The notes under the pieces were generated by a model, which ran no database searches, was not told the DNA's origin, and saw only the letters and a list, made by a program, of their open reading frames with translations. A stretch of DNA of 64,000 nt from Escherichia coli (lineage in GTDB: Bacteria; Pseudomonadota; Gammaproteobacteria; Enterobacterales; Enterobacteriaceae), in assembly GCF_003334355.1 (NCBI RefSeq), contig NZ_QOWP01000006.1; one strand, given 5' to 3'. Positions 1 through 51,014 of the stretch are shown piece by piece. Positions within the stretch are counted from its first letter, which is position 1; each line of letters begins with the position of its first letter. The position numbers and the translations under genes are program-made.

Positions 1-1046
1 CGCCGATGTCGATTATTTCCGGCGTCGGGCGGGCGGCTGAGTTTGGCGTGCTGGTGCGGGACGCCGACGCGCTGCAACGCGCCAGTACACTCGATACCGT
101 CGTGTTCGATAAAACCGGGACGCTGACCGAAGGGAAGCCGCAGGTTGTCGCAGTGAAAACGTTTGCTGATGTTGATGAAGCGCAGGCATTGCGTCTGGCG
201 GCGGCACTGGAGCAAGGTTCCAGCCATCCGCTGGCACGGGCGATCCTCGATAAAGCAGGTGATATGCAGCTGCCGCAGGTCAACGGTTTCCGCACATTGC
301 GCGGGCTGGGCGTGAGCGGTGAAGCTGAAGGTCATGCGTTATTGCTGGGCAATCAGGCGTTGTTAAATGATCAGCAAGTCGATACTAAAGCGATTGAAGC
401 CGATATTTCAGCTCAGGCATCGCAAGGGGCAACGCCTGTGCTGCTGGCGGTTGACGGGAAAGCGGTAGCCCTGCTGGCAGTACGCGATCCGTTGCGTAGT
501 GATAGCGTGGCGGCGCTGCAACGCCTGCATAAAGCGGGATATCGTCTGGTGATGTTGACCGGGGATAACCCAACCACCGCCAATGCGATCGCCAAAGAAG
601 CCGGGATTGATGAGGTGATAGCCGGGGTGCTGCCGGACGGTAAAGCCGAAGCGATCAAACGTCTGCAAAGTGAAGGACGTCAGGTGGCAATGGTGGGCGA
701 CGGCATTAACGATGCGCCAGCGCTGGCCCAGGCAGATGTCGGCATTGCAATGGGCGGCGGCAGTGATGTTGCCATTGAAACCGCGGCGATTACCCTGATG
801 CGCCATAGCCTGATGGGCGTTGCGGATGCGCTCGCTATTTCCCGCGCAACGCTGCGCAACATGAAGCAGAACCTGCTCGGTGCCTTTATCTACAACAGCA
901 TCGGTATTCCGGTCGCCGCCGGTATTTTGTGGCCGTTTACTGGAACACTGCTTAACCCGGTAGTTGCCGGAGCGGCAATGGCGCTCTCGTCGATTACCGT
1001 AGTGAGTAACGCCAACCGGTTGCTGCGGTTTAAACCGAAGGAATAA
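1..1046 (+). CDS. copA: Copper-exporting P-type ATPase CopA, C-terminal part (5' end lies outside window)
   Basis: Frame is open to the window start; translation carries P-type ATPase hallmarks (DKTGTLT phosphorylation motif, [14 protein letters not shown] hinge); stop TAA at 1044..1046. Confidence 0.93.
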
Positions 1047-1099
1047 GTACGTCATTGCGGATGCGCTGCTTTAGGGCGGCGCATTTGGCATCGACGCAT

Positions 1100-1240
1100 G
1101 ACTGCCGGATGCGGCGTGAACGCCTTATCCGGCCTACGGTTCAGGCACAAGTTTGTAGGCCTGATAAGACGGGTAAGCGTCGCATCAGGCAATGGTGCTC
1201 GGATGCCGGATGCGGCGTGAACGCCTTATCCGGCCTACGA
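1100..1240. repeat. REP/BIME cluster: three REP palindromes (two near-identical direct copies GCCGGATGCGGCGTGAACGCCTTATCCGGCCTAC flanking an inverted copy)
   Basis: Direct inspection: the same ~35 nt GC-rich palindromic unit occurs at about 1104..1138 and 1205..1239 with an inverted variant at about 1155..1190, in the gap between convergent copA and ybaQ. Confidence 0.85.
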
Positions 1241-1739: not shown

Positions 1740-2534
1740 ATGGATCTGTTGTACCGGGTAAAAACGCTTTGGGCCGCGCTGCGCGGTAATCATTACACCT
1801 GGCCTGCCATCGATATCACCCTCCCCGGCAATCGCCATTTTCATCTGATTGGCAGTATTCATATGGGTAGCCACGATATGGCTCCCCTGCCCACCCGTTT
1901 GCTCAAAAAGCTCAAAAACGCCGATGCGCTGATCGTCGAGGCGGATGTTTCCACCAGCGATACGCCTTTTGCTAATTTGCCTGCCTGCGAGGCGCTGGAA
2001 GAGCGCATTAGCGAGGAGCAACTCCAAAACCTGCAGCACATTAGCCAGGAGATGGGCATTTCTCCCTCACTCTTTTCTACCCAACCGCTGTGGCAAATCG
2101 CGATGGTTCTTCAGGCGACGCAGGCACAAAAACTGGGGCTGCGGGCAGAATACGGTATCGATTACCAGCTATTGCAGGCGGCGAAGCAACAACATAAACC
2201 CGTGATTGAACTGGAAGGGGCTGAAAACCAGATTGCCATGTTGCTCCAGCTCCCTGACAAAGGACTGGCGCTGCTGGACGATACGCTGACCCACTGGCAT
2301 ACCAACGCACGGTTGCTGCAACAAATGATGAGCTGGTGGCTGAATGCACCGCCGCAAAATAATGATATAACGCTGCCCAATACGTTCAGTCAGTCGCTGT
2401 ACGATGTGCTGATGCATCAGCGAAATCTCGCCTGGCGGGATAAATTACGCGCCATGCCGCCGGGGCGATATGTGGTCGCGGTCGGTGCACTACACCTGTA
2501 TGGAGAAGGGAATTTGCCGCAAATGTTGCGCTAA
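1740..2534 (+). CDS. ybaP: TraB/GumN-family protein YbaP
   Basis: ORF 1740..2534(+), 264 aa; preceded by GGAGG SD (aagggaggtcgtATG); protein recognised as E. coli YbaP. Confidence 0.85.
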   Translation: MDLLYRVKTLWAALRGNHYTWPAIDITLPGNRHFHLIGSIHMGSHDMAPLPTRLLKKLKNADALIVEADVSTSDTPFANLPACEALEERISEEQLQNLQHISQEMGISPSLFSTQPLWQIAMVLQATQAQKLGLRAEYGIDYQLLQAAKQQHKPVIELEGAENQIAMLLQLPDKGLALLDDTLTHWHTNARLLQQMMSWWLNAPPQNNDITLPNTFSQSLYDVLMHQRNLAWRDKLRAMPPGRYVVAVGALHLYGEGNLPQMLR

Positions 2535-2617
2535 AAAAATGGCCAATATCGCTATTGGCCCGTCAAAGAGGAATTTCATTTTTTTATTATTATGCCGTCA
2601 CTTTAAGCGACGGTGTA
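2535..2617 (-). ncRNA. chiX: Hfq-dependent small RNA ChiX (MicM/SroB)
   Basis: Minus-strand sequence ACACCGTCGCTTAAAGTGACGGCATAATAATAAAAAAATGAAATTCCTCTTTGACGGGCCAATAGCGATATTGGCCATTTTTTT: 5' stem-loop, AU-rich single-stranded stretch, then GC hairpin plus U-run terminator; lies in the ybaP-ybaK gap; not in the ORF track. Confidence 0.85.
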
Positions 2618-2722
2618 ACTCGATTGTCGCTCAATCTCACCATCCTGCCAATACTCTTAGGCAAGATGACTCTTTTTTTTGGACCGCCATCAGGCGTATG
2701 CTTGCTTCGTTTTTTTGTTTAA

Positions 2723-3217
<495 letters not shown>

Positions 3218-8289: not shown

Positions 8290-8380
8290 TATGTAGGCAT
8301 GATAAGACGCGCCAGCGTCGCATCAGGCATCGAGAGCCAAATGCCAGATGCGGCGTGAACGCCTTATCTGGCCTACGAAC
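8290..8380. repeat. REP/BIME cluster (two inverted REP units)
   Basis: GTAGGCATGATAAGACGCGCCAGCGTCGCATCAGGCA and TGCCAGATGCGGCGTGAACGCCTTATCTGGCCTAC between convergent ybaL and gsk. Confidence 0.85.
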
Positions 8381-33154: not shown

Positions 33155-33268
33155 GGGTGGGGGCCCTGCCAGCTACATCCCGGCACACGCGTCATCTGCC
33201 TTGGCTGCTTCCTTCCGGACCTGACCTGGTAAACAGAGTAGCGTTGCGGGAGAACCAACAGAGCCCCC
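33155..33268 (-). ncRNA. ffs: 4.5S RNA (signal recognition particle RNA)
   Basis: Minus strand reads GGGGGCTCTGTTGGTTCTCCCGCAACGCTACTCTGTTTACCAGGTCAGGTCCGGAAGGAAGCAGCCAAGGCAGATGACGCGTGTGCCGGGATGTAGCTGGCAGGGCCCCCACCC, the canonical 114 nt E. coli ffs, including the conserved domain IV GGAA tetraloop region. Confidence 0.95.
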
Positions 33269-50827: not shown

Positions 50828-50930
50828 AGAGCTCTCTCTTAGTTTAATTTCCGCCAGGTAATCAGATGACACGACTGTGCTTCACGCCATCTATTAACAT
50901 GTACGTCAGTATATGGGGATGTTTCCCCCA

Positions 50931-50958
50931 CATTCAACGCCGAGAATAGAGGAAAAAT
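50931..50958 (-). promoter_or_regulatory. sigma32 heat-shock promoter of lon
   Basis: Minus strand reads GTTGAATGTGGGGGAAACATCCCCATATACT: -35 TTGAA and -10 CCCCATAT upstream of the lon start. Confidence 0.75.
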
Positions 50959-51014
50959 TAAAGGGGAGATAAAATCCCCCCTTTTTGGTTAACTAATTGT
51001 ATGGGAATGGTTAA

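Follow-up and report, generated by a model that had tools for sequence, protein, structure and literature searches.

REP and BIME arrays are textbook features of E. coli. The REP, or PU, is defined as an imperfect palindrome of 30–40 nt whose foot bears the conserved tetranucleotide GTAG/CTAC (PMC3333891). According to the same source, BIME-1 is a single pair of Y and Z1 whose long L linker bears an IHF site, BIME-2 is a tandem of Y and Z2 with a short linker, and atypical BIMEs combine BIME-1 with BIME-2 as chimeras (PMC3333891). The naming of Z1 and Z2 is inconsistent across papers; for example, in the MG1655 REPtron, the REP paired with Y is z1 in a figure legend of PMC3479197 and z2 in PMC3333891 and PMC2817692. 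The Rfam family naRNA4 was built from units of REP325, which its authors define as Y-l-Z2 (PMC4550694). Studies have also reported that mRNA half-life is shorter after REP removal (PMC12306157).

In this study, the REP array between copA and ybaQ was analyzed in a stretch of E. coli DNA of 64,000 nucleotides (hereafter, the window). The array is real, ordinary and already known, and its K-12 version stands in a published list of BIME-2 elements. What is notable about it is limited to the variation of its 101-bp unit, such that E. coli strains carry anywhere from no Y copy to four.

Layout and class of the array

The genes copA and ybaQ converge on a gap of 214 bp (1047–1260), and their names were taken from RefSeq, as annotated at the identical locus of strain EC5 and at near-identical loci, including that of K-12. 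The features of the gap, two other REP pairs of the window, and the alleles of the gap in other genomes are collected in Table 1.

Table 1. Features of the window and alleles of the copA–ybaQ gap
Feature	Position in the window, or genomes	Strand	Evidence and details
copA, 3′ part (Cu+-exporting P-type ATPase)	1–1046	+	ORF 6–1046; RefSeq annotation in EC5 and K-12
copA stop codon TAA	1044–1046	+	
Non-REP hairpin	1056–1090	+	9 nt past the copA stop; predicted fold −21.5 kcal/mol, z −3.75
Y-type REP no. 1 (TGCCGGATGCGGCGTGAACGCCTTATCCGGCCTAC)	1103–1137	+	Sequence, repeat finder; predicted hairpin −21.3 kcal/mol
One full 101-bp unit of the probable BIME-2 (Y, linker, Z2, linker)	1103–1203		Copy number differs among strains
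Tail-to-tail linker, 17 nt (GGTTCAGGCACAAGTTT)	1138–1154		Short S-type, without IHF consensus
Z2-type REP, inverted (minus strand: TGCCTGATGCGACGCTTACCCGTCTTATCAGGCCTAC)	1155–1191	−	36-nt unit at 1155–1190; repeat finder; naRNA4 alignment and published naming
Rfam RF02564 (naRNA4) match, head-to-head Z2/Y pair	1158–1235	−	79.9 bits (−), 64 bits (+)
Head-to-head linker, 12 nt (ATGGTGCTCGGA)	1192–1203		Partial alignment only to the naRNA4 'l' linker
Y-type REP no. 2	1204–1238	+	Same as no. 1
ybaQ (HigA-family antitoxin-like regulator)	1261–1602	−	ORF, RefSeq annotation, translation; stop 1261–1263
Second head-to-head Z2/Y REP pair	8293–8376		naRNA4, 74.3 bits
Canonical BIME-1	19660–19757		29-nt Z1, 35-nt linker and inverted Y, 98 bp
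Gap of 57 bp	CT30		No REP
Gap of 113 bp	IAI1		One Y
Gap of 214 bp	Window, EC5, O157:H7		Y-Z2-Y
Gap of 315 bp	K-12		Three Y, two Z2
Gap of 416 bp	INSC1002, GF4, ECCNB20-2		Four Y, three Z2

The three REP palindromes that the initial annotation placed in the gap at 1100–1240 are present on re-inspection, and their coordinates were accurate. All three are 34–36 nt long, end with GGCCTAC or begin with GTAGGCC, and fold with predicted energies of −17.5 to −21.3 kcal/mol, as the definition of a REP describes. They are extragenic and highly repeated, lying in the gap and, as a query, matching a median of at least 34 places per genome. The outer two had been described as almost identical and about 100 bp apart; in fact, 1103–1138 and 1204–1239 are exactly the same over 36 nt (Y plus one base on each side) at an offset of exactly 101 bp, and a weaker extension of this direct repeat covers 63 nt at 83% identity by the repeat finder. 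The 34-nt Y consensus, with at most three mismatches allowed, occurred 4 times in the 64-kb window and 0 times in 100 dinucleotide shuffles. The census of the whole window gave seven REPs in three clusters, which is the normal density of E. coli.

Tandem Repeats Finder returned nothing for the window, since the array there amounts to only about 1.35 units; the same program finds the K-12 array. The RefSeq feature tables of MG1655 and W3110 hold no repeat features at the copA–ybaQ gap, and a literature search for ybaQ or copA plus REP returned nothing specific to the copA–ybaQ locus. Two chance ORFs, 1055–1495 and 1098–1220, run across the array in the window.

We believe, on the sequence features described here, that the copA–ybaQ array is very probably a BIME-2, in which Y and Z2 alternate with short linkers in a tandem unit of 101 bp, present here in 1.5 units (Y-Z2-Y). 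The name BIME-type REP cluster, given in the initial annotation, was correct and is sharpened by this assignment. Two Y units (1104–1137 and 1205–1238) enclose an inverted unit that aligns over its full length to the Z2 half of naRNA4. A 37-nt unit of the same kind was named Z2 by Nunvar et al. (PMC2817692). Table DS3 of PMC6379681 has the K-12 array under the entry 'BIMEs2 507807-508042', an interval that falls within the copA–ybaQ gap of W3110 (507,784–508,098). The typing as Z2 therefore rests on indirect sources, namely the naRNA4 alignment, the published naming and the listing in table DS3, and not on the original consensus figures. The tail-to-tail linker has 17 nt here versus 35 nt (19689–19723) in the BIME-1 of the same window. 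The tandem of BIME-2 is variable, and here the K-12 array has a period of 101 with 2.4 copies, and genomes carry from zero to four Y.

Some BIMEs as a class bind IHF (PMC3333891), and the array could on that ground be read as a BIME-1 (RIB/RIP) that works as an IHF binding site. We give this reading next to no credence. The partner of Y is the 36-nt Z2 type and not the 29-nt type of the window's BIME-1, the unit is tandem, and the linkers have only 17 and 12 nt. No WATCAANNNNTTR was found in 1047–1260, the nearest such site to the gap being at 1513–1525, inside ybaQ. The genuine BIME-1 at 19660–19757 looks different: its linker carries an IHF-like core, CAATATATTGAAT, which by eye differs from WATCAANNNNTTR, read on the reverse strand, by a single mismatch, and its 98 bp is the typical size of BIME-1 in table DS3 (PMC6379681). 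The inverted unit was also considered as a Z1, and the array as an atypical BIME; both were ruled out by the naRNA4 alignment, the published naming and the window's own BIME-1.

RNA structure and gyrase cleavage at the gap

The initial annotation had called such arrays stabilizers of mRNA and had proposed to fold the transcript 3′ end. Stable hairpins were predicted on both strands. The predicted folds of the whole gap on the plus and minus strands had energies of −112.5 and −101 kcal/mol, with z scores of −5.2 and −6.8 versus shuffles, respectively. Single REPs were predicted to fold at −17.5 to −21.3 kcal/mol, and adjacent inverted pairs, each as one long hairpin, at −43 to −50 kcal/mol. Read-through transcripts of copA on the plus strand and of ybaQ on the minus strand would thus end in very stable hairpins, which should impede 3′-exonucleases, so that the upstream mRNA would be stabilized. 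Judged by these modeled folds, the stabilization of mRNA by the array is plausible.

Stable GC-rich stem-loops 3′ of both stop codons could also be intrinsic (Rho-independent) terminators of copA and ybaQ, and the literature ties REP and BIME elements to transcription attenuation (PMC3333891, PMC2817692, PMC12306157). However, the combination that makes an intrinsic terminator, a GC-rich stem-loop followed by a U tract, was found on neither strand of the gap; no U tract follows any REP stem, and a terminator scan of both strands gave no site in the gap. In REP-free alleles, the conserved hairpin 1056–1090 alone remains, and at the same place Pseudocitrobacter instead has a classic hairpin followed by Ts. 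We therefore consider it quite unlikely that the REP hairpins are terminators.

Translation offers another reading, in which the REPs regulate copA or ybaQ by making ribosomes stall at termination (the Liang/Deutscher mechanism). REPs are known to lower translation when fewer than 16 nt separate them from a stop codon (PMC12306157), but the distance from the copA stop to the stem of Y no. 1 is 57 nt, and that from the ybaQ stop to Y no. 2 is 22–26 nt, both beyond this limit. The sole structure near a stop codon, at 9 nt, is the hairpin 1056–1090, which is not a REP. This reading has scarcely any chance of being right.

The hairpin 1056–1090 is common to all alleles, those that lack REPs among them, and also occurs in E. 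albertii and E. whittamii. On its 3′ side, the arm is like a REP head, and together with Y no. 1 the hairpin gives a sub-threshold naRNA4 match of 34 bits. It may be the original 3′ structure of copA or an old degenerate REP. Its distance from the copA stop lies inside the 15-nt range in which REPs reportedly stall ribosomes (PMC12306157).

The head-to-head Z2/Y pair of the gap matched RF02564 above the gathering score of 59.5 on both strands, and the naRNA4 model aligned to 1158–1235 over its full 77 positions. Transcription has been reported for many REP elements, as has the joint action of two-hairpin REP RNAs and HU (PMC4550694). On these grounds, the array could be a dedicated noncoding-RNA gene of the naRNA4 type, whose two-hairpin RNA would join HU in bridging DNA cruciforms and condensing the nucleoid. 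Nevertheless, the model also matched the unrelated REP pair at 8296–8373 (74.3 bits), which indicates that it detects Y/Z2 pairs generically and not a specific RNA gene. Moreover, naRNA4 derives from a different locus, REP325 (yjdM-yjdN), no promoter-like site was found in the gap, and approximately one quarter of E. coli genomes are without the array. A dedicated RNA gene is thus unlikely, and the match is better taken as a mark of a Y/Z2 pair.

Such arrays had also been described in the initial annotation as gyrase and IHF binding sites. The gyrase part of this statement is supported for the K-12 allele by published Topo-Seq; the IHF part does not apply, as the array has neither an L linker nor an IHF consensus. 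In a derivative of K-12 W3110, two ciprofloxacin gyrase cleavage sites were reported in the array with three Y (PMC6379681); by position, 507927 falls within the middle Y, in its loop, and 507996 within a tail-to-tail linker. The signal was weak, with N3E of about 6–8, and no cleavage sites were reported in the K-12 array with rifampicin plus ciprofloxacin, microcin or oxolinic acid (PMC6379681). Two further sites, 508673 and 508674, were rejected as array sites because W3110 coordinates put both inside copA. By extension from K-12, gyrase would find weak cleavage sites in the Y units, which lie where positive supercoils accumulate between convergent genes.

Copy number, age and surroundings across genomes

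A comparison of REP copy number at this locus across E. coli genomes, which had been proposed in the initial annotation, showed that the locus varies from zero to four Y. A query made of the unique flanks only was used to rank 5,422 genomes, and 60 were taken at even steps, which gives a systematic sample and not a full census. No Y was present in 14 of the 60 genomes (approximately 23%), one Y in 13, two Y, as in the window, in 12, three Y, as in K-12, in 11, and four Y in 3; in the remaining 7 the ybaQ side was unmatched (no ybaQ). The share with two Y agrees with a search of 5,426 complete E. coli genomes, 1,152 of which covered at least 80% of the two-Y query. Tandem Repeats Finder resolved the K-12 array as a period of 101 in 2.4 copies with 97% matches.

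Three variable sites were used to define unit haplotypes: G/A in the Y loop, A/G in the tail-to-tail linker, and G/C in Z2. Alleles with two Y had at least three haplotypes, (G,A,G) in the window, (A,G,C) in O157:H7, XJ6.2 and ET670, and (A,G,G) in ECONIH4. Alleles with three Y had two haplotype forms, and the allele with four Y is the K-12 allele with unit 1 duplicated. A single class of flank haplotypes includes alleles with two, three and four Y. The presence of several haplotypes per copy number, together with two to four Y in one flank class, indicates that the copy number changes recurrently between lineages. All three genomes labelled O157:H7 have two Y, which indicates that it is stable within a clone.

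Variation in copy number between strains is typical of BIME-2 (PMC3333891). The allelic series directly supports the view, put forward in the initial annotation, that the array is a target of recombination, as far as the change of copy number is concerned. Copy number would shift when the 101-bp direct repeats undergo unequal homologous recombination or when replication slips between them, and strand transfer mediated by TnpA-REP (RayT) is a possible contributor.

The array was also followed outside E. coli. In E. albertii, copA is followed by the conserved hairpin and then by a Y, the linker and part of a Z2, and in E. whittamii by the hairpin, a Y, the linker, a Z2 and a truncated Y head; in both, ybaP follows directly and there is no ybaQ. 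In Pseudocitrobacter, copA is followed only by a simple hairpin and then Ts, with no array. The Y-Z2 in E. albertii and E. whittamii indicates that the array predates E. coli and is at least as old as the genus Escherichia. The REP-free allele of E. coli is likely the derived state, and of the array and the ybaQ antitoxin module that now lies beside it, the array is the older.

Related arrays are dispersed in the genome. The 42-mer across the junction of Y, linker and Z2 was found in a median of 2 places per genome (maximum, 12; in K-12, 7). Paralogous arrays at yjjW-yjjV and, in LF82, beside rayT have near-identical REPs, and their linkers are related but diverged. At the LF82 locus (287–631), a CDS annotated as 'hypothetical protein' spans the BIME array next to rayT; this annotation over REPs is probably spurious.

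The genes around the array also vary. In the window, ybaQ stands alone and is annotated as a HigA-family antitoxin. Each of the three REP-free alleles examined (CT30, EcPF14, where it is frameshifted, and SWHEFF_69) has a gene of a RelE/ParE-family toxin just upstream of ybaQ, and none of the three annotated REP-bearing alleles does, so that in this small set the toxin gene is present where the REPs are absent; in the window, 1609–1678 (about 70 bp) replaces the approximately 400 bp that bear the toxin gene. Approximately 12% of E. coli genomes lack ybaQ, as 633 of 5,422 had no coverage of the ybaQ half of the flank query. AST85 retains a 3′ remnant of ybaQ and a truncated third Y with a triplication of GCCGGAT, which indicates that the loss of ybaQ there was a secondary deletion. 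In ECO_2_R, the allele is REP-free and ybaQ is deleted.

A different, GC-rich spacer of approximately 430 bp follows copA in 347 genomes and replaces both the BIME and ybaQ (R32_14_1F locus, 2700–3070). Parts of this spacer are a dispersed repeat that was found in every E. coli genome, in a median of 3 places at 90–95% identity, and an Rfam scan of the spacer gave no match. In the window, Rfam matches at gathering level were also obtained for the sroB sRNA (2533–2616, minus strand), the DnaX frameshift element (16296–16360, minus strand), SRP RNA (33164–33260, minus strand) and sraA (50899–50994, plus strand), all of which are expected for this region of E. coli.

Meaning of the array and comparison with known systems

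Approximately one quarter of the genomes are without the array and its copy number is free to change, which indicates that any local function is dispensable. We regard the element as largely a tolerated selfish or neutral repeat of the REP/RayT family, whose local effects would be structural by-products. It could also be supposed that the number of 101-bp units is a heritable, recurrently changing dial on the 3′-end stability of copA and/or ybaQ mRNA or on the local relaxation of supercoils in the gap where the two genes converge. This supposition is very improbable; if it were true, the expression of copper efflux would differ between lineages owing to the array.

The locus provides a clean 101-bp copy-number marker across E. 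coli, and the natural allelic series could serve for tests of BIME-2 dosage on flanking mRNA 3′ ends and on gyrase activity. The practical value is modest, in that the element is typed as a BIME-2 and not as an IHF-binding BIME-1.

Several known systems resemble the array in part. Bacterial minisatellites (VNTR) likewise change recurrently, as does the 101-bp unit here with its zero to four Y copies, but this unit belongs to a dispersed palindromic family and is not a locus-specific repeat. The REPINs of Pseudomonas, which are REP doublets mobilized by RAYT, likewise have adjacent inverted REPs predicted to form one long hairpin, and a paralogue of the copA–ybaQ array adjoins rayT; however, the copA–ybaQ element is a tandem array and not an isolated doublet. 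With naRNA4 (RF02564), it shares the two-hairpin architecture, whereas the locus differs and the model matches REP pairs generically. BIME-1 (RIB/RIP) elements also contain REP units, including a Y, and also lie at the 3′ ends of transcription units, but only they have a 29-nt Z1, an IHF site within a conserved L linker of about 35 nt, and a single copy of about 97 bp.

The closest likeness is with other BIME-2 elements of E. coli, such as REP325 (yjdM-yjdN), sucC-sucB and tldD-yhdP. Compared with REP325, the copA–ybaQ array is small, with 1.5 units here versus 6, and its head-to-head linker is unlike REP325's 'l' linker. Compared with the strongly cut BIME-2 elements of PMC6379681, the gyrase signal of the K-12 copA–ybaQ array is weak. 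These elements have in common with the copA–ybaQ array the same alternation of Y and Z2 with short linkers in tandem units, the same strain-variable copy number, and, going by K-12, gyrase cleavage preferentially in the Y units.
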